Shown in pieces: positions 4,158 through 62,500 of a DNA stretch of 64,000 bases. Origin of the DNA: Podarcis vaucheri (lineage: Eukaryota); NCBI GenBank assembly GCA_965113315.1, contig OZ220371.1; one strand, 5' to 3'. The notes below the pieces were generated by a model. It did not search any database, was not told where the DNA came from, and was given only the letters and a program-made list of their open reading frames with translations. A program made the position numbers and the translations under genes. Each line of letters starts with the position of its first letter. Positions within the stretch are counted from its first letter, which is position 1.

Positions 4158-4495
4158 AAAAGGTAAAGGGACCCCTGACTGTTAGGTCCAGTCGCCGATG
4201 ACTCTGGGGTTGCGGCACTTTATTGGTCGAGGGAGCTGGCGTACAGCTTCCAAGTCATGTGGCCAGCATGACTAAGCTGCTTCTGGTGAACCAGAGCAGC
4301 GCACGGAAACACCGTTTACCTTCCCACCGGAGCGGTACCTATTTATCTACTTGCACTTGACGTGCTTTCGAACTGCTAGGTTGGCAGGAGCAGGGACTGA
4401 GCAACGGGAGCTCACCCCTTCACGGGGATTCAAACCACTGACCTTCTGATCCCGAGCCCGAGGCTCAGTGGTTTAGACCACAGCACCACCTGCAT
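4158..4495 (-). mobile_element. Sauria SINE
   Basis: Reverse complement of the same family. Confidence 0.85.
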
Positions 4496-5477
4496 GGCTC
4501 AGATTGCTAAAGAGATTGCAGGATATGGGGTACATACCTCCACCTTTGGTGGGAGTGCCCCCTGGTTCAATCATTTAGGTTGGCAGTTTTCAAAGAAATT
4601 GAATTTATTCAGTTTGCCCCACAGCTTTCCCTTTTGCCTTTGTTTGAAGGTAGTAATAATGACATGAAATCCAACAAACTTTAAATTCTGCAAGCCTTTC
4701 TATCGTCCAAAAATAGAAAAGGTTATCTGGCCTCTGTGTTTCCTCATGACTGAATAATGTTTGGAACTTTGCTTTGCTAGAAAAGATAACTTGGCATTTA
4801 GGGCTATTAATGGCATTGCAAAACTGGTCTCTTTTCATTCTGCATGGGAGGAATTCATCTTTTATGCAAATACCTATCAGTTGCATCAAATGTTACCTGC
4901 TGCTTCCCTGGACATATGGAGCATGTGGTCCTTAAAAAAGCACTGACATTATTATTATTAGTATTATTACCATTACTACTATTATTATTTGCAACTTTCA
5001 TGTACCCTTTACATATGCACTATTGACCTGAATCCAATATCCTGTGTTTTTGATCCAGAGTTCTCTTTTGTTTCGTTTTTTATAAGCTTGCTTATACAAA
5101 AATCCAATAAAAATATTAAAAAATAAAATAACATAGAAATGATGAATGGACATAATGCACAATGGTAAGTCCTACAGCTGGATAGAAAGGAAAAATAAAC
5201 AAAGAAAAGGAGGCAGGTTTTCGAACTTCCTCTCCTTTTCCCCTGATGGGGCCTCACCATGCCTGGCAACATGACTGGAGCCTGTGTCTGCCACTGAGCT
5301 GACCCAGCGCTTAGAAGTAGAGATGGGGCTATTCTAACTGCTCCTGCAAGCTACAACTGGGGCCTTGGCTACCACAAGTTAGTTGTGGAGAGCTCTGGCC
5401 ATGGCTGCCACCCTCCTCTTCTCTCTGGCAGCCCCAGATGACCCACATGTAATGGGGAGAAGCAGGGCTGGCCAGGG

Positions 5478-5971
5478 CAGGGGTCTGCAACCCGCGGCTC
5501 TGGAGCCGCATGTGGCTCTTTTACACCTTTGCCGTGGCTCCAGGGTGGATACTAGCGAGGGGAGGAGGCGCATTGTGCGCCCCGACACTCCCCACTGTGG
5601 CGGGCGCTGTACGTACTGGCTGTGACGTCGCATGGGGGCGGTGCATGCGTTAGTCACGCACCGTCCCGACGTCACCTGCCCGCCTGCTACATTGTAAGGG
5701 GCATGTACGCTGGTCACTGCATTGAAAGGGGGCATGTACGCTGGTCACTGTTTTGAAGGGGCGTGAAGAACACACGCACAAAAAAAGATAACTTGTTAAT
5801 TTAACGTTTATTTCTATGAGGAGGAGTAATTCTGAGGGGTCAAACAAAGAAATAATAAAAAAGTGAGAAAAAAGTTATTTTTATAATGACGAGTTTTGCA
5901 GCTCCCAGGTTTTTTTTCCTTCGGAAACGGGTCCAAGTGGCTCTTTTTGTCTTAAAGGTTGCAGACCCCTG
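5478..5971. mobile_element. hAT-type non-autonomous element
   Basis: 15-bp TIR CAGGGGTCTGCAACC; 8-bp TSD GGCCAGGG/GGCTAGGG. Confidence 0.85.
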
Positions 5972-6486
5972 GGCTAGGGCCATCTTGCCCCTAGACATTT
6001 TGTTTGGGATGCCCTGCCTCCTCCTTTTCCTCCACTGCAAGCATGCCATAGCAGCACCACTGTCTCCCCCACAGCTGTGCTATGCCACCACCACCAGCAG
6101 CAGCAGTGGCAGGCCATACCTGTGCCAGAGGAGGCAGTGGTGGGGTGCACTCACAGCAGAAGAAGAGGCAGCAGCACACTCCTCAGACCCACATCTGCTG
6201 TCTGAAGAGGCCACCTCACGTTGCCTCATGGGTGGGTGGGCAAGCTCTGTGTAGATTGTTCCGGGGCCTTAAAATAGCAACTCAATTTACAGAGATATAT
6301 GGAAACAGCTACGGATAAACTGGGGGTGCTATGGATATGTGTGTAGCTCTTTTGTCTTAAGGGATGGAGGTACCACCAAAATTTAAATTCCAGTTTTTAA
6401 TTTTGAAATTTGCACCCATATATACATTAGCATGTATGTTTTATGCAAATTTGTTTCTTCTTTTTGGTGATGTTTATCCTCACTGT

Positions 6487-35237: not shown

Positions 35238-36429
35238 TGATATATATATATCCAATACTTTTCATTTTGGATGTTCTGAATGTTTTCTCTTTGCTTTGGG
35301 CCAGTTTGGACAAAGCTAGGGCTCACCCAAACTTCCGCTTGCCACATTGCTTCCACCCGCCCCAAGAAACCCGCTTTTTACAGCTGAATCAGAGCAAACG
35401 TGAACTGGATTTTCCGCAGATGGACGACTGCTCCCAATTCAGCAGCAAAGAGCAAGTTTTCCTGGGGGAAGTGGTGGGCCAAACGGGAAACTGCTCAGAC
35501 CTGTGTTTTCTAGGCATGGGCCAAGTGGAACTGTGGACAAGCCCTTAGCGTTCTCCGTTTGCTCCGCACAGAGTGGCTCCTGTATACCTGAAGGAGCGTC
35601 TCCACCCCCATCGTTCTGCCCGGACACTGAGGTCCAGCTCCAAAGAGGGCCTTCTGGCAGTTCCCTCGCTGCGAGAAGTGATGTTACAGGGAACCAGGCA
35701 GAGGACCTTCTCGGTGGTGGCGCCCGCCCTGTGGAACACCCTCTCAGCAGATGTCAAGGCAATAAACAACTATTTTACTTTTAAAAAACAGCTGAAGTTT
35801 AGGGAAGTTTTTAATGTCTGATGCTGTATTGTTTTTAACACTCGATTGGAAGCTGCCCAGATGGGCGGGGTGTAAATTATTATTATTATTAGCCTTCCAC
35901 GGCGGAAAACCTGACTGCCTTCTATTGTCACTCTGCCCTACATTTCGCGGCGGGGCATACAAGCAAAGCCCCTCAACCCGCCCAAGGTCCGAGCTCGCTC
36001 TGGGGAGCCGCAGCCGACGCGAGGCAGGGCCGAAGCGGCCGCCCCGATCCCCCCCCCTCCTCCTCCTTCCGCCCCGAAGTCACCTTTGACGACCATCTCC
36101 CTGGCGGGCGCGGGAGAGCAAGCCTTGGGCACGAGCGTCCGGAGCACCACCTCCAGCTCCTCCTCGGCGGGGCCGGCGAGGCCCAGGGCTTCGAAGTCCT
36201 CGCGGCAGCAGCGGCAGAAGGCCTCGCACGCGGCCTCCAGCGCCCGCCTGCCGGGGCTCCCCTCCCCGCCTGCCCCGGGCCGAGCGGCCCGCCAAGCCCC
36301 GTCCTGCCGAGCGCCGCACAGCCGCTTGTTGGCCACCTGGGGCTTCTCCAGCCACACGCCCACCGCCGCCCAGAAGCCCCCCGGGAGCAGCGCCGAGCCC
36401 CGCAGGGAGGCCTCCGCCAGCAGCTCCAT
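11510..36429 (-). CDS. TRMT44: tRNA (uracil-O(2)-)-methyltransferase TRMT44, whole coding span (11 coding exons, ~654 aa)
   Basis: Spliced translation matches recalled vertebrate TRMT44 motifs: GFWAAVGVWLEKPQVANKRL, VWPEVTDPEKFVYEDVAIASYLL, SAM motif SFVDLGCGNGLL, DWLIGNHSDELTPWIP, LRIPSTKR, C-terminal CCCH finger. All introns are GT-AG with consistent phases; exon sum 1965 nt. Confidence 0.96.
12470..13165. mobile_element. Tc1/mariner-type MITE family A, interrupted by a nested MITE
   Basis: Host sequence resumes after the insertion with a duplicated TA. Confidence 0.85.
12496..12947. mobile_element. Tc1/mariner-type MITE family B (TIR CCGTATTTTTCGCCCTATAGG), nested
   Basis: 21-bp perfect TIR, TA TSD, internal direct repeats. 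Confidence 0.9.
13822..14201 (+). mobile_element. L2-clade LINE 3' end
   Basis: VLTFKA...YLKERL...RTLRSS; AT-rich (TAT)n tail; homologues at 35580, 53135 and 24009. Confidence 0.75.
14289..14527. mobile_element. hAT-type element (older)
   Basis: Imperfect TIR CAGCGGCATAGCT / AGCTACGCCTCTG, degenerate 8-bp TSD. Confidence 0.55.
14661..14777 (-). CDS. TRMT44: TRMT44 coding exon 10
   Basis: (E)SLPLSEIAEHLDKDTLKRLKNEYGGLQTLLRNNHQVFE. Confidence 0.94.
15500..16380 (+). mobile_element. degraded L2-type LINE RT-region fragment
   Basis: LVLLDTLETFKTISHGILLDCL...LQWFWSFL resembles the L2 RT motif LLDLSAAFDTIDHGILL. Confidence 0.55.
16590..18031 (+). mobile_element. CR1 LINE remnant: ORF1 (Cys finger/coiled coil + esterase) joined to the ORF2 3' end
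   Basis: TCAMF...TCRKCKLAALLEEKVQQLE, SDSLLRGTE, VCCLPGAKI, LLIHVGT; then [29 protein letters not shown]; CR1 3' UTR. Confidence 0.85.
19859..20210 (+). mobile_element. Sauria SINE
   Basis: Same family, small deletion in the B-box region. Confidence 0.85.
20674..21058 (-). CDS. TRMT44: TRMT44 coding exon 9
   Basis: VCLIGTSRTY...GFLPRGKEQVRNCTTLP...WNRG; 385 nt open, donor GTGAG. Confidence 0.92.
21437..21939. mobile_element. Tc1/mariner-type MITE family C (TIR CAGTGGTGCC.CGCAAGAC)
   Basis: TA TSD, TIRs, repeated CAAGACGAA motifs, GC-rich interior. Confidence 0.85.
23455..23638 (-). CDS. TRMT44: TRMT44 coding exon 8
   Basis: SSYSCRYFLLPCCFFDFYGKYNRRQSKKTQYREYLDF...LRIPSTKR. Confidence 0.95.
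23814..24280. mobile_element. hAT-type MITE split by an L2 3' end and the assembly gap
   Basis: Perfect TSD GGTCAGAG on both sides; L2 fragment at 24009-24216 (minus). Confidence 0.8.
23872..24008. other. assembly gap
   Basis: Run of N. Confidence 1.
24586..24604 (-). promoter_or_regulatory. CTCF consensus-like site
   Basis: Minus strand GCCACCAGGGGGCAGCAG matches the CTCF core; motif only, occupancy unknown. Confidence 0.45.
25109..25244. mobile_element. palindromic hAT-type MITE (TIR CAGGCTTCCTCAA)
   Basis: TSD TTCTAAAT/TTCTAAAG. Confidence 0.8.
25543..25643 (-). CDS. TRMT44: TRMT44 coding exon 7
   Basis: ENTVSPDNLYPDVDWLIGNHSDELTPWIPVIAA(R). Confidence 0.95.
27133..27204 (-). CDS. TRMT44: TRMT44 coding exon 6
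   Basis: HPGKGIDVRRRKIWDMYGPQTHLE. Confidence 0.95.
27519..27933. mobile_element. Tc1/mariner-type MITE family C
   Basis: TA TSD, perfect TIR CAGTGGTGCCCCGCAAGACGAA, AT-rich interior. Confidence 0.85.
28159..28774 (+). mobile_element. LTR-like remnant with a perfect 75-bp tandem duplication (28321-28395, 28396-28470)
   Basis: GC/purine-rich block in an AT-rich intron, ends ...CATCACA; the duplication is seen directly, the boundaries are uncertain. Confidence 0.45.
29148..29255 (-). CDS. TRMT44: TRMT44 coding exon 5 (SAM-binding motif)
   Basis: ILWEDERAERGLSKKQSFVDLGCGNGLLVHILNNEG. Confidence 0.95.
29520..29654. repeat. imperfect inverted repeat (~60-bp arms)
   Basis: CTCAGTGCACAAAAA..GAAGAAAATGCAT pairs with ATGCATTTTCTTCTTTTTGTGCACTGAG. 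Confidence 0.75.
29937..30005 (-). CDS. TRMT44: TRMT44 coding exon 4
   Basis: VWPEVTDPEKFVYEDVAIASYLL, 69 nt. Confidence 0.95.
30105..30256 (-). mobile_element. RTE-clade LINE 3' end
   Basis: Minus strand encodes CPHCGRICGSRIGLHSHLGTHR*, an RTE-type C-terminal zinc finger, followed by a short tail. Confidence 0.7.
30664..30883 (-). CDS. TRMT44: TRMT44 coding exon 3
   Basis: SISMFTSPPENYISDGILCPKTSWLGSELLPKLAKWS...KEKYKDIVK; AG/GT boundaries in phase. Confidence 0.93.
34464..34581 (-). CDS. TRMT44: TRMT44 coding exon 2
   Basis: (D)IFNGTVTFLPLVQTHDGKYKIMKSNIYQVRLLHTQDNE(W); acceptor TTTACAG, donor GTGGGT. Confidence 0.9.
34937..35137. mobile_element. Tc1/mariner-type MITE, family A
   Basis: TA-flanked, homologous to other family A copies. 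Confidence 0.8.
35202..35251. repeat. compound (TC)n(TG)n(TA)n microsatellite
   Basis: Seen directly. Confidence 0.9.
35580..35890 (+). mobile_element. L2-clade LINE 3' end
   Basis: RTFSVVAPALWNTL; (TAT)n tail. Confidence 0.75.
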
Positions 36430-37680
36430 GGCGGGCGGCGCGGGTTGACGACGTCACATCCGGGCGAGGAGCTGTCCCCGCCCCGCTCTTCCGCTCCATC
36501 TCACCCAGAGAGCTATGAAAAAGGTCAAGAGCGGCGCGCTTCCCTTGCTCGTGGGGATATTCCGGGAGGAGTCGCTTGCAAGAACAACAACGAGAGATAA
36601 GAAACCTCTTCCCCTTTGGCACCATTTGGAGGAAGCAACATAGAATCCTGGGGGAGTTGGGAGGGACCTCCAGAGGTCATCTAGCCCAACCCCCGGGCAA
36701 TGCAGGAATCTGAACCAACGCATCCACGGCAGGTGGCCATCCAACAAACAGGGGGCAAGGCAGGATTTCCATGTCACTTCACGGCGGCTGCAAAGCTCTC
36801 ACCGCCGAAGAAAAGGCAGCCGCAGGTGCGGAAGTCAGCGCGATTCTCCGCGCCGCAAGCCGCCCTGGGGTCTTGGGCTGAGAGGCGGCGTCTCGTAAGT
36901 TCAGACACGGATTGAGACCCGTCAGAGGCGACGGAGAGCCCAGGCGCGCTGCAGGAAGCCCGTTCAGTCCGGGGCTGGCTTGGATGCGCGCCCCGGGGCT
37001 CCGCGGGAGGCGGCGCTGAGCGCTTCTGCGCGCGTCCTATCAGAGGGCGGGGCGTGTTTCTTTGCGCGCGCTCGGGGCGGGGCGCGGAGCGAAGTCTGTC
37101 GCCGTCGGGGAAGGTGCGCAGCGCGGCGACCTCGCGTTTTCCGTGACCGTGGAGAGACGGTGGGTGCGGGTGCCTCAAGTCCCGGGGGAGTCGGCGGGGG
37201 CCTCCCACCTCTTTCCCCTTCGCGCAGAAAAGGGCTGCTTGGCGGCGCCTCCCCCCCCCCCCAGCCTCCCGCTCACTTGCGCGCAGTGGCGTAGCGTGGG
37301 AGGTGCAGGGGGGCCGGGCGCACCGGGCGCAACATCTGGGGTTTAGGGTTAGGGGGCGCAAATCCACGGGTCAGGGGGCGCAAATTACTTGCCTTGCCCC
37401 GGGTGCTGACAACCCACGCTACGCCACTGCTTGCGCGACTCGCCGCAAGATCCCCTCGGGGACCTTTGCCGCGAGTGGGAAGGGGCGCAAACGCGTCGCT
37501 GGAAAAGGAGCCCCGGCTGGCTGCTGCGTGCGCCGGGGCTCCGCGGGGGCTGGAGGGCCGCCTTGCGCGCCTTGGCTGGGGAAGCGCCCTTGCCCGGAGT
37601 GGGAGCTGCTTGCCCAACGAACCTGTCCGATTGCGCAGTCCGTGGAAGTTGGACTCGGGCGCTGCCTTGCATAAGTAGCG
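35940..37680. promoter_or_regulatory. CpG island, bidirectional TRMT44/ACOX3 promoter
   Basis: Very CpG-rich. CRE/ATF-like GACGTCAC and ETS-like CATCCGG/CTTCCG lie just 5' of the TRMT44 ATG; GC boxes GGGCGGGG at ~37045-37085. Candidate non-coding ACOX3 first-exon donors at 37160 (GTGGGT) and 36895 (GTAAGT). Confidence 0.8.
36084..36429 (-). CDS. TRMT44: TRMT44 coding exon 1
   Basis: MELLAEASL...AREMVVK, donor AAG|GTGAC; lies in CpG island; ends phase 1. Confidence 0.9.
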
Positions 37681-37882
37681 ATTACCTGCTTATGAAAGCA
37701 ATGGCACGAGAGGCAGTGAACGTGTCAACAGGCCCATAAACCAGCTGCTCCTTCTTGTATCTAAGCACCCCTTGTAGCTTTCTTTGTGCAGGGTCAAAGT
37801 TTATTTACATTGACCAAAGACAGTTCCCGTATCCAGTCAGAGAGAGAAAAGGGAACGTTTTTAGCAGCAGCAACCTCTCTTT

Positions 37883-38526: not shown

Positions 38527-41500
38527 GTAAGGCTTAGAATAATATTTCTTTAAAAGCGATGTTGCAAATTAAACACAATCTGTCATAACCCCCCTTAAAG
38601 TATCCAATATGTACCATTAAATTCTGGTTCCTGGGGGGTTAGGGTTAAGGGATTCACATGGCCAGGGACCTTTTCTTGGGTCAAGAGAGCCATGATCCTT
38701 GATAAACAGGGATTTGAGGTGTTTTTGTTTTTGTCAGTGTAAATGGCCGTCCAGTAAGTTACTTTACATTTTGATAGGACTGTGCATGATGTTCATGCTT
38801 AAAGGGTTTTCCATCTAGGACTGGGTAAAAACAATATTCTCAAAAATATTGGAAGCCTTTTGAGGAGGGGATAGATTTCTTCTGTATTGTGTTTTTGATC
38901 TGGAGGAAAACCTCACAATTATATTGGTATAAAATTGAAATTATGCACTTCTTTATCAGATCCAAACTTCTACTGCTTTTAGTGCAGTACATGAAATGCA
39001 ATATCTATAATAATGATTCAAAGAGCTTTTAATCAGTGAGGCAACATTTGGATGTGAACTTATGTAATATTGCTTTTAAGATGGTTGACATTTATTAAGT
39101 TTTAAACGGCTTCCTGATTGTCCTTGTACATTTCTTATGGCATAGGGAAATGACTAAATGTGTTAATATATAAAATATGAATACTTCAGTTCAATGATAA
39201 ATTCAAATCTGACGTTCAACTATTCTGATGTGTTTCTTCCATGAAGAGCAGAATATTCTCGGCTCTTGAAAATGACCCTCTCTTTGCTCGTCACACTGGA
39301 GAAGAATTACCTCTTGAGAAATACCGTGAACTAACCTTCCTCCGCTGTAGGAAACTCTTTGAATATGATTTTCTACGGCTAGAAGACATAATTGAGAAAC
39401 CATTAAAAGTTGTAGCGGTGATTACTTGCCTGGGGATGTATGACTGGTCTCTAGGAGCCAAATATTTGCTAAATTCCCAGGTATGTACAATGCAGGTGTA
39501 AGCTCTTTTATAGATTTCCTTAAAGACTCAAGCCTACTAGCAAAGCATTCCATTTTTATTTTGGATAAATATTTTTGGAGATTTCATCTGAGCTGCTCTA
39601 TGTACGCTTTTGATTTAGAGGCTACAGTGGCTTGACACTTTTTTCACGTGGTAATTGTAGTGAAAACTTCATTGCTTGAACATACACCCTCCACAATAGT
39701 CTATTGATATTTGTTTTTAATTTCTTTTTGCTTTTAAATTGCTTTTCACTTATTATTATTTCACTTATTATTACAGTCATACCTCTAGTTGCGTTCGCTT
39801 CATGTTGTGGATTTTGGGATTGCGAACGTGGCAAACCTGGAAGTGTATACACAGCGTTCTGTGCGCTTCACACATGCGCAGAAGCACCCTATTGCACTCT
39901 GCACTTGCGCAGAAGCGCTGCTCTAGTTGCGGACTTTTTGGGGTGCGAATGGCACCCTGAAATGGATCGTGTCCGCAACTAGAAGTACCACTGTATCATT
40001 ATTAGTAGTATTGAATTTATATACCGCCCTATACCCGGAGGTCTCAGGGTGGTTTTAGAATGTTATTCTTGTTGGAAAACTAGCCCCCTCGGGAGAGGCT
40101 GGCCTCTCTCCCCGCTCCCGGAGCTTGTTTACCGGTGATCTTCCTCTGGCTGGCATCCCAGACAGACCAGGGAGATCTTGATAGGCGACATCTCCCAGTG
40201 GGGAAGATGCACACCCCCTTCTCCCTTCTCCCCTTTCACAGGGGAAAGAAGAATAGTCAGAAAGTCCTTTTACATCTTGTTTATTTCTGACTGTACAACT
40301 CTACAGAAAACATTCCCGATCAGTTCAAACTTCTCCAAGTAAGTGACTCAGACTTCCTTTACAAACGCAACAGGAAGGTCTCATATTACACACGGAACAA
40401 AGCCTTGTGTATCCCGTGAACTGCCTGGAAGATTCTTTCCCAGGACTAGCCACATCATGGGATGTAAACAAGCTGCCAGTTTGCAGCTGCAATGTACTCA
40501 TATTGTAACATCCTCCCCCATATGAATCAACGTTAGCTGCGAACAAAGCTTCATCCAGAGAAGAAAACAAACAGTTGTTATACACGTAACAATCCCCTGT
40601 TGTTTCAGTTCCACCTTTGGAACTACCTGCCACTGGTTTCACCAGTGTAACTCTCTGGTTGTCTGTTTTCCAAGGAATGAGTGCTTCTGCATTACCTTGG
40701 GTAGGGAAAGTTGTGTTGCGCTCAGTAACTCCCAGTTGTGTCTTTGTCTCTGACTTAGACACACCTTTAACTTGTCTAGAGTTGTCAACAATAGTAACAC
40801 ATGCAACAGCAGAGTTAGCAAACTCTTGAGAATACCTTTTTGGTGGTACGCCCTTTGTGATTCTCTCAGACCTGCGTATGAGGTGCTGATCCTGTTTGCT
40901 GACTGGTTTATCCTCAGGACCTTTTGGAGAACCACGCCCAACAGTAAATAGTGGTTCAGTTCACTTCTAGTTCAGCCTTAACCTGTGTAGGTGCTACGAT
41001 ATGAGAACAACGCAGCTGCAAACTGGCAGCTTGGTGAAAACATCACATGATGTGGCTAGCTGTGGGAAAGAATCTTCCCGGAAGTTCACAGGCTTCACAA
41101 AGCTTTGTTCAGTGTGTAATATGAGACCTTCCTGTTGCGTATGTAAAGGAAGTCTGTGTCACTTGCTCGATGGAGACTGAGCAGATCGGTCATGTTTTTG
41201 TACAGCTATAAAGTCAGAAATAAACTGTAGAGATGTAGACTTTCTGACTATCTCCTTTCTCTTGCTGGCATGCAAGGAGGGAGGGGGTGTGCACCTTCCG
41301 AGCTGGAAGATGTCACCTATCAAGATCTACCCTGGACTTGCGGGGATGCCAGCCAGGGAGATTGCCGGTAAACAAGTTCCCGGGAGCCTGGGAGAGTTGC
41401 CAGCCTCTCCCGAGGGGGCTAGTTTTCCAACAGTAGGTCTAGACATTGTGTGAGAACTCCTCTCAATGACTGTGTCAACAGAACTCTCTGAGCTTTCTGT

Positions 41501-44500
41501 GTCACTCTCAGTACCAGAATAATCAGAATTATCATCTGAACTGTTATCAGTAGGAAATGTGTGAAAAAACCTCTCTCTCCTGTCCAGGAGTGTTCTCTAG
41601 AAACTTTGTGAGAATCACCTCACCAGATTCAGACAAAATTACTCTGTAGAGACCCTTTTCATAACCCACAAAAATGCCTTTGGCATTCTTAACCCCCTGT
41701 GGAGTTTCAGTACGGACGTGAGATCCAAAAACCTTAAAATGTGTTACAAAAGGTTTCCTATGGAAGAGCTCCTCAAAAGGAGAACTTTCCATACCTTTTG
41801 AAACCTTTCTTACCCAAGTGTAACAGAAAGAAGATAAAGATTCAGACCAAAACTCATGTGGCAAATGTGAACTCAGCAATTGTGCCTTCATGCCATTTTG
41901 CAACTTTTTGTTTACCTTTACAGAAATACTCTTGTTCCATGAAGTTTCAGAAACAGCAACCTTATGCTCTATCCCTTGCTTCTTAAGGAAATCCTGAAAA
42001 TCCTGTAAAAGGAAAATTGGCTTTTCATCTGTGAAAAGATAATCAATATTAGCATTATGAACATTTTTAACCTTGTCACAAAACTCCTGAAACCTTGCTA
42101 AGGCTTCTTTTGGTGATTTCAATACATATACCCATACATATTGAGAATAATGATCAACACATACAAGATAGTATTTTGCATTGCCTCTAGATGGTGCTAG
42201 AGGACCAATTACATCAGCATACACTCGCTGAAAAACACTGGTTATCTTTGCAGCCTTCTTATCCTTGGATACACCTGCAAGAGAAAACATTTTAGTATCA
42301 CATTCAGTGCACATTCTGTAATCTGACTTATCAAAAATCAATAGATACAGTCCATCTTTCTCTCTGGCAGAAAGAAACAGCTCTCCGTCTTTAAAGATTT
42401 TGCAACTCTCCTTATCATAGGACAACACCAGTCCTTTCTTTGTCATCTGAGAAACACTCAGCAGATTGAACTTTAAATCAGGAACATAATACACATTGTT
42501 TATAGTCAAGTTCAGGCTTTCCAGATAAACAGCTCCAAACCCGGTCGCTTCAATCTCTTGACCATTGGCTTGTTTCACAGTGAAGCTTTGCTTCTCAAAC
42601 GTAGAAAACAATTCCCTGCGTGATGCTAGGTGCTGGGTGCAGCCCGTGTCCAGAATAAACGCATTTTCAACTAATGAAGAGGCTCCCGGCGATATTAAAG
42701 CCTTTGCTGGTCTTGCCTTTGACTTGGCATGACCTTTGCTTGAAGCCTCAGGCTTTGCAGAGCTCCCTTTAGCTCCTTTTTGCTGACGTGGCCTTTTACA
42801 GTTCTTCTGAATATGCCCTGGCTGGCCACAATTGTAACAACGAACAACATTCAGAGCTACAGCTTGCTCCTCAGTGGCAACCACAGTGGGGGTGCTTGAA
42901 CTCCGAACTTCACTCCCCCTGTCAGCAACAGCTATTGCAGCAAGGCGGTCTCTCTCATTAAGAACCACAGAACAAATTCTCTCCACCGTGAGATCCCGGG
43001 CAGGTAGAGAACCCAATTGACTTGCAACTGTTTTGTACGTACAGTTCAAACTGTTAATTATCATGAAGCAAAATATTTCTTCCTGAAGAGGGAAATTGCG
43101 TTGCGCCATCTGCTGGCGTAAGAATTTCATCTCTGTCAAATGCACTTGGACATCACCATCAGGTGCTAGTCGCATGTTTGTGAGCTTTTCAAAGCACAGC
43201 AGCGCTGTGCCTGCGGCATCCTTTTGATGGATTTGCTGTAGCGTTTCCCAAATCTCGTGTGCAAATTGCAAATCTGCTATATGCACAAGCTGATCATCAG
43301 AGACACACAAAATAATAGCCGACCTGGCTTTCACATTCTGAGAATTCCGAGCTACTGTGGGTGCAGCTGGAACGGGATTTTTAATCACTCCAAATACTCT
43401 CTGACTCTGAAGCAGGGCTTTCATTTTCACAGACCATGAGGAATAATTGTCATTAGTTAGGGGAGGTGGATAAGGTAAACCTGCCCCTTTCTTGGCATCC
43501 ATCTTGATTCCAAGTTACAGCTTTCAGCTACGTGCTGAAAAATCCAAAAGTCTATGAGCTGTTTACAAGCTGCAAGCACCTGGCAGCTAGCTCAGCTTGG
43601 AAAGTCTCTTCCAACAGCCTGCGAGACAGCAAGCTAACGCTGAAAAATCCAACAGCTTTTTTTTTTCCAGCTTCTGAGCTTTTTACTGCTCTGGCTTGCT
43701 TCACTCTTTCCTTTGAAGCTAATGAGCCCATAAATCAGCCCGTAAAGTACTCACGACTTGTTGGCAGGCAGTGGCAGTTTTATCAGCTCCCCTGGAATGC
43801 TTGGTATGTGGCCTTCTCTCCGCTCTGTTTTAATCCGAAAACAGGAGCCTCTCTGAGCGAACCGGAGAACTTTCAATCCGCGTTCACCATCAGCCATAAA
43901 TCAGCAACTGTCAGGGGTCCGTGGAACGTCGCTTATCAGCAAAAAACGCCTCCACCGGTGCTCCAGCCGTCCTTAGCCGTTACTTCGTAGCCACCATCCG
44001 CGTGCTACCACTTGTTGCACAACCAGTGTCCATCGGTTCTGCTACCACTTGTTGTAAAACTAGCCCCCTCGGGAGAGGCTGGCCTCTCTCCCCGCTCCCG
44101 GAGCTTGTTTACCGGTGATCTTCCTCTGGCTGGCATCCCAGACAAACCAGGGAGATCTTGATAGGCCACATCTCCCAGTGGGGAAGATGCACACCCCCTT
44201 CTCCCTTCTCCCCTTTCACAGGGGAAAGAAGAATAGTCAGAAAGTCCTTTTACATCTTGTTTATTTCTGACTGTACAACTCTACAGAAAACATGCCCGAT
44301 CAGTTCAAACTTCTCCAAGTAAGTGACTCAGACTTCCTTTACAAACGCAACAGGAAGGTCTCATATTACACACGGAACAAAGCCTTGTGTATCCCGTGAA
44401 CTGCCTGGAAGATTCTTTCCCAGGACTAGCCACATCATGGGATGTAAACAAGCTGCCAGTTTGCAGCTGCGATGTACTCATATTGTAACAATTCTTTGGT

Positions 44501-47500
44501 TTTACGGTATATTTTTATATGGTTGTAAACCATTGTGATATGTTTTTATGATACAGTGGTATATAAACATTTTTATAAATAAATAAATTTATAAAACTGG
44601 TATCAGAATTATAAACCATTATCTCATCATGTCATCTAATCATCTGACTGTGAGAAATGATTAAACTACTGTTTCTCTACTTTTATTTAAACCATTTCCC
44701 TGTGTTGATACAGAGCTAGGTCAGATTCTGATTGAAGCTAACAGAATTGCACTGTCTCCTTTGGGTTTAAGCTAAGCTGGTTTTTGTCATACAGGGAGCA
44801 AAGCAGACAGTCTACAAAACCTCCTAGTCGCTTACAGCAGTGATCTGAGCTGGCCAAGAAACCTTTAGGGTTAAGAAGGACCTAATGGTGTAAAGAGTAT
44901 GTAGCATCTTCCTAAAGTTCTCCCTTTTGGACAGACACGGATGGTGCCACACAGGCAGAATTCCCACCTGACATTCCACCTGACAAACCCTTTTAAACAA
45001 GTAGTATCATTATTCTGACACCAGTGGGCAGCAACACAAAAGTCCTGATGAATAGGAAGAACAAACTCTCCCCAGCTTCCCATTAGGAGGAGGAGGCAGG
45101 ATGGGAAGACCTGAAACATGGTATGTCTCCTGGTATGTCCCACAGAGGACCTTATGGTCTTCAAACAAAAACATATTGGAGGTCCGGGGCCACAGGGAGG
45201 TTACGCTGGCCTCAACCAGAGCCAGGGCTTTTTGGCTGTGGCCCTGATCTGGTGGAACACTGTCACAAGAGACTAGGGCCCTGCGGGACTTGACATCTTT
45301 CCGCAGGGCCTGCAAGACAGAGCTGTTCCACCAGGCCTTACCCTCCTTTGGTAATCCTCACAGAACTCTAGCCCAATGGTTGCCCTTAATTTGATTTGAA
45401 CTGATTTTATAATGATTTAATTTTGGAATGCTGTATTATTTTACTGTTGTTAGCCGCTCTGAGCCTGGCTTTGGCTGGGGAGGACGGGATATAAATACAA
45501 TATTATTATTATTATTATTATTATCATTATCATTTTCGTCATCATCATTATGGCAGTGGAAGGATTTACCTCTATATCCTCACTAGATCTTTACCAGAGC
45601 CTTTGCGTGTCAAAGGTTGAAAACGAACACATTCCATGTTTTATTTTATTGTGATTGTCAAACTTACTCAACAGTTCAATTCAGCCTCATCACCCTTTTG
45701 GGATCAACGGATGTGTCCTGGGGACATATTTTATTGGCTCCTGCCCTTCTTTTCATGTTGGGTGTATGATCACATGCATCCTGGGTGTGGCCAACACATC
45801 CTTTTGGGATGGAGTGGTTCTGGTCATCTTGAAAGAGACAGTGATACGGCCACTCCTTGAAAAAATCACCCTCGGCCCATTGCCTCGTGACGACTACTGC
45901 CCAGTTACAAATACCCCTTTTTTGGAAAATTGATTGAGAGGGTTGTGGGATGGTGGCAAGTGCTCTAGGATGAAACCTGTTCTCTTCACCGGCCTTGAGA
46001 AGATATTGTACTATTGCTTAATAATAATCCAGAGATCAAGGAATCATTCATTTTTATTTTCATTATTTCACTTTGCAGCTGAAACCAGGAGGAAAATTAT
46101 TTTCTTGTAATGAAGTTGTGTTTCCTGATGCAGAATAGCGTAAAATATCACAGAATAGCATTTTCTCCTAGGAAGGGAGCAACTTAACACTTGACTTGTG
46201 GTTTGAGCTGTGAGCAGTGATGCTTTTCTATCTCAAATCTTTATTGAACATGTCATTTTGACCCCTTCCTCTACTTTAACAAAAATATTTTTACTATTTA
46301 TCATTTACATCAGCTAATTGTCTTTAATGTTTACAGGTGTTCAAAAGTGCAATTGAGAGTTCTGGCTCAAAAAGACATGAAGAATTTATTAAAGATAATG
46401 AAAATATGAAGGTACTCTTTAAACTACCTAAATCAATCTTTGCTTTAAAATACCAGTATATATACTGCCACTAATTTTGAGTTAATGGTGTTTCTAAAAA
46501 CAAGATTATTAGCTACGTATACTAATGAAGCAATACCTGCAAATCTCTTGTAAAATAGTATCTCCTATGGAGTTACTTCATTTTGATTTACTAGTGCTTC
46601 TCTGTTTCTGTCGGAAAACCATAATTAAAGTTTCTTACAGTGGAAGGGATGAATTATCTGGATCAGTTTGCTTATTCATCATTTATGAAACTACTGCAGG
46701 ATCTTCACTAATATCTAATACAAATTTATAAGGCAGTAGTTCAAGAAGTGCCTTGCAGCATCAAATCAGCAGAGTGCAGTCCTTCAGCACAAAGCCACAA
46801 ACATACCTGTCCAAAAGATGCTCACCTTGCTTCAGTTAAGGGTGATGCAGGTAGAAGCAGGATTCCACATTCGTATCCTAAGCTGTATACGTCAATTCTG
46901 TGTGCATGACCCCTATTCCCACAACCAAACAGTTTTCAAAAGGTGTGAACTTAGCCAAGGGATGAAGAGCCTGTTGCCATGTAGATGTTGTTGAACTCCA
47001 GTTCCCATTAGCACCAGCCAGTGCAACCAGCAGCCAGGGATTATGGGAGTTGTAGTCTGGCAACATATACAGGGCCACAGAATCCCCACCCTGGCATAAA
47101 AAAAATGTTCAGAAAGGGAAGTACTGCTTCTCTGAACAGTGGGATTGGAGAAAGCTGATCCTCCTTCTAAAGGACTCTATGCACACTCCTTTGGATAAAG
47201 CAAAGAGTTTTATTTTAACTTCTTAAGGAAACTTTTTCATTTTGTGTTTTTTCACTGTTAATACATTGACTAAGCTTTGGATCAGGCATAGGCAAACTTG
47301 GCCCTCCAGATGTTTTGGGACTACAATTCCCATCACCCCTGACCACTGGTCCTGTTAGCTAGGGATGATGGGAGTTGTAGTCCCACAACATCTGGAGAGC
47401 TGAGTTTGCCTATGCCTGCTTTGGATTTTGCTTGTTGCTGTGGTGACCTGGTGTTAACATTTACCTTTTGACTTGATCCTAAACGTTTACACCTGTGAAT

Positions 47501-50500
47501 TGTGATATAAACACTGAGCTCAGATAGGTGGGAGGAGAGGGAAAGGAGGAACTGCCCTGAGATTTGCAGATGAAGGGCGGTATCCAAATTTAATAAATGG
47601 CTAAAAAATGATAAATATAGTGCATTTCAGGGCTCACTTTAGAGCTGCTGCAGCCTCACAATAGCCATGCGTGGCCACCTGTCCCTAACCCAACATCATA
47701 TGGTGCCAGGTGTGGGACAAGCACAGCCGTGGCTTCAAAGGAAAAATCAGGAGGCAGATGACAATCCAGATAATTCATTTGTGTTACGATGCTGCCCTGC
47801 TGCCCACTTCTTCCAGGCAGGACCAGTTCCAATCAGGAACTTTTGACAGTAGCTGTAATCCTTGCCGAAAGAAGGATGCTGGCATTGCACTGGGTGCCAA
47901 ATTTAAACAGCCTCCTAATGCAAGCCGTGCAGCTTCCAGAAGGGATCAAAACTTCAGCTGAGAGCTCCTGAGTGGAACTGATCACGCCTGGCATGCATTT
48001 CCAGGTGCCACCTGACAGGAGCTTGAAAGATGGGCACACAGTTCAAGAAGGACACTGACAAACTGGAACGTGTCCAGAGGAGGGCAACCAAAATGGTCAA
48101 AGGCCTGGAAATGATGCCTTATGAGGAACGGCTAAGGGAGCTGGGCATGTTTAGCCTGGAGAAGAGGAGGTTAAGGGGTGATATGATAGCCATGTTCAAA
48201 TATATAAAAGGATGTCACATAGAGGAGGGAGAAAGGTTGTTTTCTGCTGCTCCAGAGAAGCGGACACGGAGCAATGGATCCAAACGACAAGAAAGAAGAT
48301 TCCACCTAAAGATTAGGAAGAACTTCCTGACAGTAAGAGCTGTTCGACAGTGGAATTTGCTGCCAAGGAGTGTGGTGGAGTCTCCTACTTTGGAGGTCTT
48401 TAAGCAGAGGCTTGACAACCATATGTCAGGAGTGCTCTGATGGTGTTTCCTGCTTGGCAGGGGGTTGGACTCGATGGCCCTTGTGGTCTCTTCCAACTCT
48501 ATGATTCTATGATTCTACACCCCACACCTGTCAAATGCAGCCTCCAGAGGGTTGGCACCTCCTTGTCCTAGCCTGCCAGAGGAGATGCCCTTTCCCAAAG
48601 GGCAGCCGCTGGTCAGTGGGTGACCTCTACCCGGCTGCAGGGCAGTGTGCCCACTCTGAATCATTTAAGGACTAGACTTTGAAGCTCACAGATGAACATC
48701 TTTAAGTTTGTAAGCTGGAGCTCCAGGGCAGCTCTTTCACAACAGAGATCCCCCATTGCCCTAATGTTTACGCCACCCTGGTTTGAATCATACAAGTTCT
48801 TACTCAGTTTGTGTCTTTTGTCTCCAGAACTTTGGATGTTTTGCTCTGACTGAATTAAGCCATGGCAGCAATACCAAGAACATGCGGACTACAGCTAGAT
48901 ATGACCCGACTACTCAAGTTAGTAGCAGTGCCCTGTAAAGTTCTCTAATATTCTTCACTTAATTTTTTATTAAAATAGGACATTGTACTTCTGAACCCAG
49001 GTACTCTAATCTTTTCTATACAGTGGACCTGCAACTCACATGTAACCTATTTATATGATCACAAACGTAGGCTCAGGTCCAATGAATGAATGAATGAGGC
49101 ACAGGAGAATTCCAACCTGGAAAGAGCTTTTTTTAGTCCTTTGCCTTGATGGCTAGGCTCTGAGAAGATGGTACAAGGGCCCTGAGATGCTTCCGGAGCC
49201 CTTGTGCAGTAAGCAGGGCGGAGGGCAAAGCCTGATCCAGACAGGCCACTGTATTGGGACCTGTCATGGGAAGAGCCCTACCCAACAGCCTCACATTTCT
49301 GCTGGTAAATAGTTTGGAAAAGAGCTCCATGACTGTGGTGCAGTGGTAAAAAGAAAAATGCCTCTGTGGCTTTGTTTGAAGCCTTTCTCCTAAAATGTAT
49401 GTATTGTTTACGCCTGTGAAACTATTTTCCATTGCGTTTCTGTCCTGCTCACTGAGGCTGCAGTCCTGTGGCCATTTAGTTCAGAGAAAGCCCTGCTGAA
49501 CGCCAAGTAGACAGGGGTTGTGCTGCGACAGCACAGAACAGAGGTTGTCAATAGATTCATCCAACTTCATATTTCAGAGAAGATATACAGTGTGTTTAGA
49601 ATTTTCTCCCCATCCCCCTCTTATCAACTATGTAGGAATTCATTATTCACTCACCGGATTTTGAAGCAGCAAAGTTCTGGGTTGGCAACATGGGGAAGAA
49701 TGCAACTCATGCAGTTGTCTACGCACAGCTATATACTCCGGATGGCCAGTGCCATGGATTGCATTCCTTTGTCGTACAGGTGAGAATGAATTCATCTAAA
49801 TCTAGAATATTGGAATAAGCCAAGAGCTTTTTCATTATCCTGGATCATTGGTGGCATTTGCCTATTACTATTTCCTAGTTGTAAACACTTTTTGTGGAAC
49901 GGTCACTTGCTAGCCTGGAAATTGCATAAGATCACTCTGGAGTCACTAAAGGGGGGGGGGCGCCTCTTCAGGCAAATATCTTTCTACTGGGTATGAAAGG
50001 CTTGCAAGTGCCCTTGCCCTGCTTTGGCCAAGCAGAAAGTAATGTACAACCCAGTGCAATATCTGCATTGCTCCCTCAGTATGCGTTTGGACAGTAAGTT
50101 CAGAGACAGTGCAGCTGTAGATGAGCACAGCTCTGGGCTGCTGAGTCCTGTGTTACTTTAGACCCATGAAGATGGGGAGCATCATATGCCCTTGTAGCAG
50201 ATACAAAAATATTTCTCTGAAGGGCACCTGACAGTGCAATCATACAATGAGCCGTGTACTGAAAGACATTGTGAGCCCCATAGAAGCGCCTGTGGGAAAT
50301 GTGAAGTTTGTTGTGTATTGGGTTTTAGATCATAGCTATATAATCCAACCAGTTGCATGCATTGAAACAGATGTGCACACTTTTCTAATTAATTGTATAG
50401 AGTTCTGAACCGGAACAAAAAGGTGGTTCAATGACTTCTTGTAAATGTTTTAATGGAGGCATTTCTTACAGATCCGAGATCCGAAAACACTTCTTCCCAT

Positions 50501-59500: not shown

Positions 59501-62500
59501 GCTCCATCAGGAAGATAACAGAGAAGGGGCAGAACATGAGAAAATAATGGGAGAAGGAGCAGAAAAAATCGGCAAAGTCAGTCCAGTGTTTGGACTTCCT
59601 CCAGAGATGCCCAGCAGCTCCAGCACATGAATGGGCATGTCAAATAGTGGGGGTAAGTCAGGAACGGATACTAGCGAAAAAAGGGGAAAGTGGGTCATGG
59701 TGGCAGACCAATCCAAATTAAGGGTTCATGAAGCTAGAGGTTGGAAATGGACGTTTCTAAAGAGCTGGAGGGACCAATATTATCACTTAGTTATGATGGT
59801 TCATCCTAGTTTAATATTTGCCAAGGTACCTACAGTGTAATAAATACAGCAGAGAGTCCCACGGTGCTGTTACTCATTAAGGATACCAAAGGGCTTCCTT
59901 GTTTGCTGTAACAGACTGACACCATGTGATGTACAGTACCCCTGGAGGCAGGATCTTATGGCCTTCCCAGAGACAGTGGCCTCGTTCTCAGGCCCAACCA
60001 CTGAAAGGAAGCTCCGGGGGAGGAACAAGAGAATAGCAGATAACGGATTAGTGATGAAAGTTGCAAGACATGATGCCCAACCTTGCCTCATATTACAGAA
60101 TTGTCACGATCCGTCTTGCATACCTGTCCCCCTGAAATCGCATGAGAGATGTTCAGCTGGGATGCAGTCATGTTGAGTTCTATATATGCCACCAGCATTC
60201 CTTCACACAGTTGCTTCAGAGTACAATCTGCATCACTTTTATGCAGCACAGATTGCCCTGAAGGATACAGAGAGGATAGTAAGAATGGCCCTTTCAACTT
60301 CTTTTTGGGTGCCTTTTACTTAACTATTGCTATTGAACAGTTAGTAATCTTTGCCTGGATTTGTAGCTGTGGTTGAATTTTTCTTTCTTTTTTCAAGGTG
60401 TACTATTGTCGTTCTTTAGCTATAGCATTTATTGAGCACACTGTTTTGCAAAGATATCATGACTACGTTCACAGTTCCAACACACCAGCTAGCCTCCAGC
60501 CGGTACTGAAGAATATATGTTCGCTGTATGGATTATGGTCTTTAAATAAGCACATGTCAGTGCTCTACCAAGGTGAGATCAACATTTTGCCTACATGGTA
60601 AAATTTAGAATCTGCAAACACTTCAAGGCTCTTACAAATTTACTACTGCATTTAAGTAAGTAAGTAAGTTGAGCCACCCAGTGTAGTTTCTGCACCAAGG
60701 AAGCAGTAAATGCGTTATACAGTCTTACAGCTCTGATCTTTTAGCCCCAGTTCTCTTCTACTGCACAGCTTGGGGGAGCTGTGTTTTAAGATACAATACT
60801 GAATTTCCTAAACCTTTTCTTCTGACATCCAGCCTCTTACAAAACTTGCCTTAAGCTGTGGAGTGCAATCTTCTTAAAGGCAAAACTAGCAAGGTAACTA
60901 AAGGCCCCATCTGCACTGCACATCTGAAGCAGTACCATACCACTTTAAACAGCCATGGCTTCCCTCAAAGCATCCTGGGAATTGTAGTTTAAGTGTCTGA
61001 GAGTTATTAGGGAAACCCCATTCCCATCACACAGCTACAGTTCCCAGAGTTCTCTGGGAAGAGGGATTGATTGTTAAACCATTCTGAGAATTGTAGCTCT
61101 GTGAGGAGAATAGGAACTTGAAGGTAGAAAACAAAGTTTTTGCCTTATCTCTGTCTGTTCCTCCCAGGACTGTCGCTGACCACGGCCAGCTCAGCTTTGG
61201 CACTCGGCAGTATTCTTCACTTTCCAGAGAGCCACAATTAGGCACTTGGACACCAGATTCCAAGTCCTCTTCCCATTCAGCCATGAAGGGGAAACCTGCT
61301 CACTTTTAGATAACATTCTTCATACCCCACAGATCTAGCAGATTTTTTGATCCAATATGAGTCCTTTAACTTCATTGTCATCATAAATATCTTTCAGGTG
61401 GCTACATTTCAGGTGCAAATGCTGGCAGATTTGTGCAAGATGCAATTCTAGAACTGTGTTCAAAGGTATGTTCCCTTTTGGTTTAAATATTATGCTGAGT
61501 AACTGTAGACTAAGAGTCCAGGGGCAGCAGGGACCCCAGACTCTGAGCTTCCTTTAAACAAGAAGTGCAAGGCTCTAGCCTTTAGATTGAAAGCTATGAA
61601 GTAAAATGCGTGGGTATCATTCAGAGCAATTGGTTTGCAAGGTATATGAGCCTACTCTTGCCTTTCATTGTTGTTAACTTATGAGTGAAGTCAGAGCTGT
61701 GATTGATGAGCACGACAGAGAAATTTGGAGGCACACAGGCCCAAGTGAAGACCCCAAAATGCTTCAAAATGACCTGGAACATCCTTCTTAGTGTTTTTTT
61801 AAGGAAACCCCCAAAATAGTTGAGCTTTTTTCACACTTGATTCCTGCATTGCACGGGGTTGGACGCGATGACCCATGAGGTTCTATGATAGTGAAAATCG
61901 GAGAACATTATGGAGCTTTCCATATTAGAAATCTGAAACTGTTGGCTGTTAGTGGCTTGCCAAAATAGTTATGCTACAGCTCTGCTTGTTGTAGAAACCT
62001 AATCAGAATACCCAGTTTCTATAACTTTTTTTCCTGCACAGCTGAAGCAAGAGGCTGTGGCTTTGGTAGATGTGATTGCTCCTCCGGACTTCATTCTCAA
62101 CTCGCCAATTGGCAGGGCTGATGGAGAGGTAAACAAGTCTTTTTGCAAACCTCTGACTGTTTACTGTGCCTCTTTTTGAACTTTGTGTTTTCAATATTTG
62201 TACTTTGTTGTGTCACAGTTAGAAACTGTGTGTGTTTGGGAGTGGCTGAGAGGGAAGACCCACAGTCTAGCAGCATGAATATACCATATTTTTCGCTCTA
62301 TAAGACGCACCAGACCACAAGACGCACCTAGTTTTTGGAGAAGGAAAACAAGAAAAAAAATATTCTGAATCTCAGAAGCCAGAACAGCAAGAGGGATCGC
62401 TGTGCAATGAAAGCAGCGATCCCTCTTGCTGTTCTGGCTTCTGGGATAGCTGCGCAAGCCTTCATTCGCTCCATAAGACGCACACATATTTCCCCTTACT

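Follow-up and report, generated by a model that had tools for sequence, protein, structure and literature searches.

An inverted solo LTR inside a copia-type element of an acyl-CoA-oxidase intron is probably a one-time insertion by a sister lineage

Why does a copia-type element with two closely matching long terminal repeats (LTRs) contain, near its 3′ end, a third and inverted LTR that is much less like either of them? The initial annotation offered two answers, namely that a sister subfamily inserted very recently and collapsed to a solo LTR, or that the three-LTR structure is propagated as a unit that carries its own antisense or double-stranded-RNA silencing cassette. From the window (the whole 64 kb stretch of DNA that was analysed, which contains no N bases), from related copies in the same genome and from contigs of related organisms, we conclude that the inner LTR very probably came from a one-time insertion by a sister lineage and was then reduced to a solo LTR, making this a single old locus and an ordinary case of nesting.

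The nested LTR, its host element and the surrounding gene

The host element lies on the minus strand and comprises the following features.

40065–40069, plus strand: outer target-site duplication (TSD) ATTCT, with its other copy at 44491–44495
40070–40510, minus strand: host 3′ LTR, the left arm of the nearest inverted pair
40511–40986, minus strand: host 3′ internal tail with a polypurine tract at its end; in relatives, an open gag–protease–integrase frame continuing into the 3′ LTR
41547–43499, minus strand: host gag–protease–integrase frame of 650 amino acids, without reverse transcriptase (RT) and without RNase H
44032–44049, minus strand: primer-binding-site (PBS)-like stretch past the 5′ LTR
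44050–44490, minus strand: host 5′ LTR, placed by sequence comparison

The two host LTRs are 441 bp each and identical at 436 of 441 positions (98.9%). The PBS-like stretch presumably resembles the 3′ end of initiator-Met tRNA, and a 24-base LTR-end/PBS-like motif is repeated 37 bases further in at 88% likeness (44003–44063), giving a tandem second PBS-like site. Pfam matches of the copia order were obtained for PF14223, PF00098, PF22936, PF25597 and, below the cut-off, PF00665, with no match to RT or RNase H in any frame of the window. In addition, comparison with the RT-bearing copies L092, L107 and L108 shows that the host integrase lacks both the HH zinc motif and the third catalytic acidic residue.

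The host shares this coding content with its family. All four long frames of relatives that were compared with Pfam (L061:2925–5138, L068:2406–5723, L072:873–3533 and L078:807–3590) encode gag and/or protease, an integrase core below the cut-off and an SH3-like domain, and none of the four has a match to RT or RNase H. The HH motif and the third acidic residue are also absent from L061 and L078, the two copies in which the D2..E stretch was read, L068 and L072 being left out. In the relatives, the frame passes through the tail into the 3′ LTR and stops about 60 codons in, with a Cys-rich motif; its counterpart in the host 3′ LTR lies at 40325–40510. Among 55 family LTRs, a sample drawn by likeness to the inner and host LTRs and favouring their neighbours, 29 are solo LTRs with matching TSDs. 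This Cys-rich frame end (CxxC..CCxC, the first ~60 LTR codons) is open in 49 of the 55 and in 24 of the 29 solos, and neither of the other two frames over the U3 part is open in any of the 55. Within the U3 frame part, 19 of 31 insertions and deletions have a length divisible by three, versus 17 of 128 in the sequence beyond it. The pN/pS over all pairs of the 49 open LTRs is 0.83, which does not indicate strong selection on the protein, and only the keeping of the frame is supported by these comparisons.

Hundreds of LTR candidates of the family (649) and many intact autonomous copia frames are present in the genome. No autonomous partner was found: none of the 30 RT-bearing loci examined, taken from 150 matches among 2373 candidates, has DNA similarity to the 55 LTRs. 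Because the family is without RT, RNase H and the integrase catalytic residues, and none of these 30 loci shares its LTRs, it is likely to be non-autonomous and to depend on a separate helper. We note that one contig of 41.3 Mb (C41; e.g. copies L061–L079) holds 35 of the 40 listed tail matches, often nested and in a near-identical burst, with the solos on other contigs; such a pile-up would fit a non-recombining sex chromosome.

Between the tail and the long frame of the host lies the inner LTR, with the following features.

40987–40991, plus strand: left GTAGG of the inner TSD, where relatives with an uninterrupted site have one 5-mer of the GTAGG/GAAGG type
40992–41432, plus strand: inner solo LTR, sense to the host gene and opposite in orientation to the host element, assigned to a sister lineage
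40992–41177, plus strand: first 62 codons of the inner LTR, all open, forming the family's Cys-rich frame end within U3 and without a Pfam match
41207–41212, plus strand: TATAAA, private to the inner LTR, where the family state is TGTAAA/TGTACA
41219–41224, plus strand: AATAAA, the poly(A)-type hexamer common across the family, in sense orientation to the host gene and ahead of the two others in the intron
41433–41437, plus strand: right copy of the inner TSD GTAGG, placed by sequence comparison

The inner LTR has the 441 bp length of the host LTRs, termini of the TG..CA type (TGCTA..CAACA) and homology to LTRs that flank copia-type coding sequence. Chance similarity is excluded by a 441-bp match with an E value of ~1e-115, together with a perfect 5-bp TSD. 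Full length, TG..CA ends and a 5-bp TSD that is single in empty sites together identify it as a solo LTR. It is reverse-complementary to both host LTRs, with 81.8% identity when gaps are counted and ~87% when they are not. The gap to the 3′ LTR is 481 bases, and the 5′ LTR, ~2.6 kb away, forms an inverted pair with it as well. In these respects the initial annotation had described the locus correctly: the inverted relative of equal length with its TSD (both copies exact), the loop of ~480 bases and the ~99% identity of the host LTRs all hold, and the likeness of the inner LTR was rightly seen, with the figure of roughly three-quarters set too low. It had also proposed that removing the inner LTR restores the host frame, and with the LTR and one of its TSD copies removed, the flanking frames are indeed in register (..HTMSRP-T / QVKAELEVN*, the two sides translated separately); as the host frame itself has breaks to either side, the open part of the restored frame is limited to 54 codons ahead of the insert and 9 behind it. 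The inner LTR begins with TGC in the window where the family has TGT (position 40994), and the contigs of three related runs (X1, X2 and X4) read T, so this start seems particular to the lineage of the window.

What the initial annotation missed is that the whole element sits antisense within an intron of an acyl-CoA-oxidase gene.

39247–39480, plus strand: acyl-CoA-oxidase coding exon upstream of the element, open for 78 codons and with AG..GT ends
39481–46337, plus strand: intron containing the whole element, the next exon, likewise open and with AG..GT ends, starting at 46338

Neither Pfam nor PDB had a match for the upstream exon by itself, and the gene was identified from the downstream exons, where PF01756 scores over the cut-off on the plus strand at 60398–60580 and 62033–62134, with a weak PF02770 match within 48765–48935. 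We take the gene to be ACOX3. A GC-rich stretch (36400–37700) is accompanied by a minus-strand first exon (35938–36429) without a Pfam match, which we assume to be TRMT44-like and which stands head to head with the acyl-CoA-oxidase gene, the element being ~3 kb from the likely shared promoter of the pair. Because the host element is antisense in the intron, the inner LTR is sense to the gene.

Origin and age of the inner LTR

The junction search that the initial annotation had suggested was run with 24-mers. Each junction has one match in the 1.6-Gb genome at up to three mismatches, with none for the reversed controls, a uniqueness that applies to one haploid assembly, and other individuals may carry further copies. 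Only the window itself bridges a junction among the best 40 of 324 matches on the right and the best 40 of 54 on the left. When the insertion site was read in 20 fetched relatives, 18 were uninterrupted with a single GAAGG/GTAGG-type 5-mer and two were unreadable, and an LTR end was found at the site in none of the 20. In none of these searches did an inner junction recur at a further locus with another outer TSD. For this assembly, the unique junctions, the lack of any other bridging match and the lack of an LTR end at the site in the relatives refute the idea that the three LTRs have spread together as a silencing cassette. Nesting at other sites is common and was seen in two of the 20 relatives. 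One carries a same-family solo LTR nested at a different position, in the same orientation as its host and with the TSD CCCTC (L074:3569–4009), and the other an inverted same-family insertion with arms of ~990 bp that are 82% alike (L077:2004–2984 and 5009–5994).

The near-identity of the host LTRs beside a divergent inner LTR presents no paradox, because the first figure records time since insertion and the second the distance between lineages. The closest genomic relative of the inner LTR is 88% identical among the best 40 of 649 candidates; for the host, the corresponding figures are only 91% (LTR) and 93% (tail). Among the 29 solos, identity to the nearest neighbour has a median of 91% (range 84–96), and the inner LTR, at 87, is the third lowest, with a terminal branch of 0.10 versus a median of 0.04. 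An LTR tree, one of the checks put forward with the initial annotation, separates it from the host clade and places it in a group with support 89/99. Its sequence is a mosaic, positions 1–95 being 95–96% like one clade and positions 190–270 being 91.5% like another, and this mosaicism would explain the long branch. With 11 CpG (host LTRs 9, median 10) and a U3 frame that remains open, the inner LTR shows no extra decay. Under a rough null, 10% neutral decay leaves the U3 frame open ~12% of the time; since the frame is mostly open, most of the distance between copies would have arisen in replicating lineages. The host pair ranks among the youngest of the LTR pairs compared, those of other elements being 89 to 98.7% identical. 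A plant survey found that 25% of nested elements appear older than the elements that harbour them (PMC7251063), and same-family nesting with a preference for 3′ regions is described in another (PMC6911290).

Contigs from related organisms point to an insertion that is not of the very recent past. Between 23 and 52% of the words of the stretch are contained in 19 DNA or unlabelled runs from 12 organisms, and contigs from 7 of 21 runs were compared with the window. A 199-base contig of X1, at a depth of ~10, spans the left junction by 150 + 50 letters with four differences and one gap, a contig of X2 spans the outer junction of the host 5′ LTR, and pieces of X2 and X10, with a depth like that of single-copy sequence, cross each of the inner junctions. 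Five contigs in all span an inner junction; the four from X2 and X10 have a short side of 27–30 letters, under our 31-letter rule, which the contig of X1 alone passes. For X3, X4, X17 and X19, no junction piece was found among the pieces listed. The listed near-identical pieces differ from the window at 5 of 684 letters in X2 (0.7%) and 11 of 549 in X10 (2.0%), figures that come from pieces filtered at 94% likeness and may be low. The host LTR pair differs by 1.1% (95% interval 0.4–2.6), which overlaps these differences. On these sequence comparisons, both insertions would have occurred close in time, shortly before the organisms split, and the locus would have stayed single. The sister-subfamily insertion that had been proposed, with its collapse to a solo LTR, is supported, and only its very recent date falls, as the junctions are carried by contigs of other organisms.

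No empty orthologous site was established in other organisms. A 446-base skip in X2 and X4, seen at 90% likeness, is absent for X2 at 94% and was read as coming from paralogs, and a joint in X10 carries paralog-like letters and was likewise read as a paralog. X19 yields inner-LTR-like pieces at 98%, where the best own-genome paralog reaches 90%, and has zero cover in the bins 40960–40989 and 41440–41589; a gap in cover proves nothing.

In sum, the sequence of events that best accounts for the locus begins with the host element, which sits antisense in the acyl-CoA-oxidase intron. A second element of the same family would then have integrated in the opposite orientation into the 3′ internal region of the host, as the TSD and the empty sites suggest, and would have lost its middle by LTR–LTR recombination, leaving the solo LTR that is the usual state of the family. 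Taking the contigs as orthologous, this insertion probably predates the divergence of the window's organism from three or more relatives, which differ from it by ~1–2% here. The 18% difference from the host LTRs would mostly reflect the distance between replicating, recombining lineages, and little of it decay after insertion. As a side effect, the pre-mRNA is predicted to form a long imperfect duplex, of the kind that ADAR would edit and splicing would discard. The structure is most likely neutral, and RNA effects at the level of the locus are unlikely.

The sense LTR and the predicted hairpin

The foremost alternative to a neutral solo LTR keeps its one-off origin and adds an effect in cis, by which the sense LTR offers the gene an alternative promoter or a poly(A) site inside the intron and yields truncated or 5′-shortened acyl-CoA-oxidase transcripts in some tissue. 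We consider this improbable. Its AATAAA, present in 51 of the 55 family LTRs, is the first of three sense AATAAA hexamers in the 6.9-kb intron, and antisense is the usual orientation of intronic LTRs, the sense orientation being disfavoured by selection attributed to splice and poly(A) signals (PMC1794541). The TATAAA is private to the inner LTR, and none of the differences listed for four runs falls on its letters; the same hexamer, however, occurs six times on the same strand of the intron. A single-depth contig of X19 has the AATAAA changed, with its orthology unsure, and persistence across organisms suggests little harm. The survival of a sense LTR with AATAAA in several organisms fits tolerance and also fits use.

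The initial annotation had the inner LTR keeping TATAAA and AATAAA where the host LTRs have TGTACA. Both hexamers are present and the host state is as described, but the first is not kept: at the TATA position, the 55 LTRs have TATAAA once, TGTAAA 16 times and TGTACA 15 times, with other variants in the rest, and the nearest relatives of the inner LTR carry TGTAAA. The TATAAA is likely to be a private one-letter gain from TGTAAA, not a retained box. A conserved TATA box was rejected on the same count (1 of 55), and with it the family-wide conservation expected of an active LTR promoter. The antisense promoter that had been proposed rests on this private TATAAA, and a transcript begun in the inner LTR would lead away from the 3′ LTR and so be unable to form the hairpin with the 481-base loop. 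Nor does antisense RNA across gag-pol need an inner promoter, because the gene's pre-mRNA would supply it. The only RNAs that span both arms are the pre-mRNA of the host gene and the element's own RNA.

On the gene strand, the region 40070–41432 has a predicted folding energy of −769 kcal/mol, versus −419.5 ± 7.6 for eight shuffles, with 378 arm-to-arm pairs and stacks of 34, 29, 22 and 20. The pre-mRNA is thus predicted to fold into a long imperfect hairpin at this locus. Of the inverted pairs in the window, that of the 3′ LTR and the inner LTR is the longest and the most closely spaced. Further inverted pairs lie at 4159–4490/6495–6847, 2076–2268/4289–4490 and 24206–24291/25098–25181, and at 47283–47418; among the inverted repeats of the window is a hairpin of 58 bp, closed by a 20-base loop, in the acyl-CoA-oxidase gene.

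A second alternative to the neutral solo LTR gives this hairpin a function, as in Mu killer of maize: read-through from the host gene would yield a hairpin RNA with the 3′ LTR and the inner LTR as its arms, and small RNAs diced from it would act in trans to silence the family. A long inverted repeat within a host transcription unit is what the geometry and the fold indicate, transcription being taken from the intron position, and the energy, the number of pairs and the rank of the pair in the window all agree with such a use. We nevertheless hold it to be highly unlikely, the arms being 18% mismatched and intronic, the family copies being 5–25% away from them and three other inverted transposable-element pairs with arms no more than ~2 kb apart lying in the same 64 kb. 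Long intronic duplexes in vertebrates are mostly edited rather than diced. Editing is what PMC526178 describes for inverted repeats in introns, and the precedent of Tirant (PMC13226689) concerns exonic insertions in 3′ untranslated regions. The precedent in favour is Mu killer (PMC3440606). We give just as little credence to the fuller form of this idea, in which a chance inverted self-insertion made the intron of a housekeeping gene into a natural vertebrate Mu killer, the family was silenced by small RNAs of a 440-bp hairpin and the locus was kept across organisms for that reason.

Scarcely credible is the idea that a source element, which together with any siblings would be lost or outside the assembly, acquired the three-LTR structure and passed it on whole to this locus, for although the host LTR pair is among the youngest and the inner LTR has no sibling above 88% (best 40 of 649), the junctions are unique, their contigs have single-copy-like depth, the host too is without a close sibling and the inner LTR is without excess decay.

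Comparison with known systems

With the one-time insertion as the preferred reading, a single nested solo LTR is ordinary and serves as a marker shared among related organisms. The locus illustrates that distance between LTR lineages must not be taken for age. It would gain importance if small RNAs against the family came from the hairpin, or if the acyl-CoA-oxidase transcript were shortened by the sense LTR. The family, which has hundreds of LTR copies, lacks RT and RNase H and combines a defective integrase with an open U3 frame, may merit more attention than the locus. In a search of titles and the starts of abstracts, with most subscription journals outside it, no description was found of an inverted nested solo LTR making small RNAs; nor, in a search of the same depth with Repbase also outside it, of an RT-less copia lineage in lizards.

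The nesting itself resembles autoinsertion in plants (PMC6911290, PMC7251063), in that an insertion of the same family lies in the 3′ internal region with a 5-bp TSD and the nested part is more diverged than the host pair. Those surveys of plants deal with full-length nested elements, whereas here a vertebrate solo LTR is compared between lineages and not with a second LTR of its own.

For the predicted pre-mRNA hairpin, the nearest known behaviour would be that of ADAR-edited intronic inverted Alus, in which two opposite copies of one family lie close together in an intron, pairing is predicted in the pre-mRNA and editing depends on distance and homology (PMC526178). The arms here differ from Alus in being 441-bp LTRs with a second partner 2.6 kb downstream, and their pairing is a prediction. 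Mu killer (PMC3440606) is alike in that transposon sequence is inverted and read-through from a host gene would give a hairpin. There, an inverted duplication of one element forms a hairpin of ~4 kb with demonstrated silencing, whereas the arms here are 82% alike and intronic and the hairpin is predicted.

The host family has its closest counterpart in coding content elsewhere, and to it we turn last. The TR-GAG elements of plants are non-autonomous LTR retrotransposons that keep part of the coding region. Like them, the host family has LTRs, PBS-like and polypurine-tract signals and gag, and lacks RT and RNase H. Unlike TR-GAG, it also keeps a protease, a catalytically defective integrase-like region and a frame that extends ~60 codons into U3.
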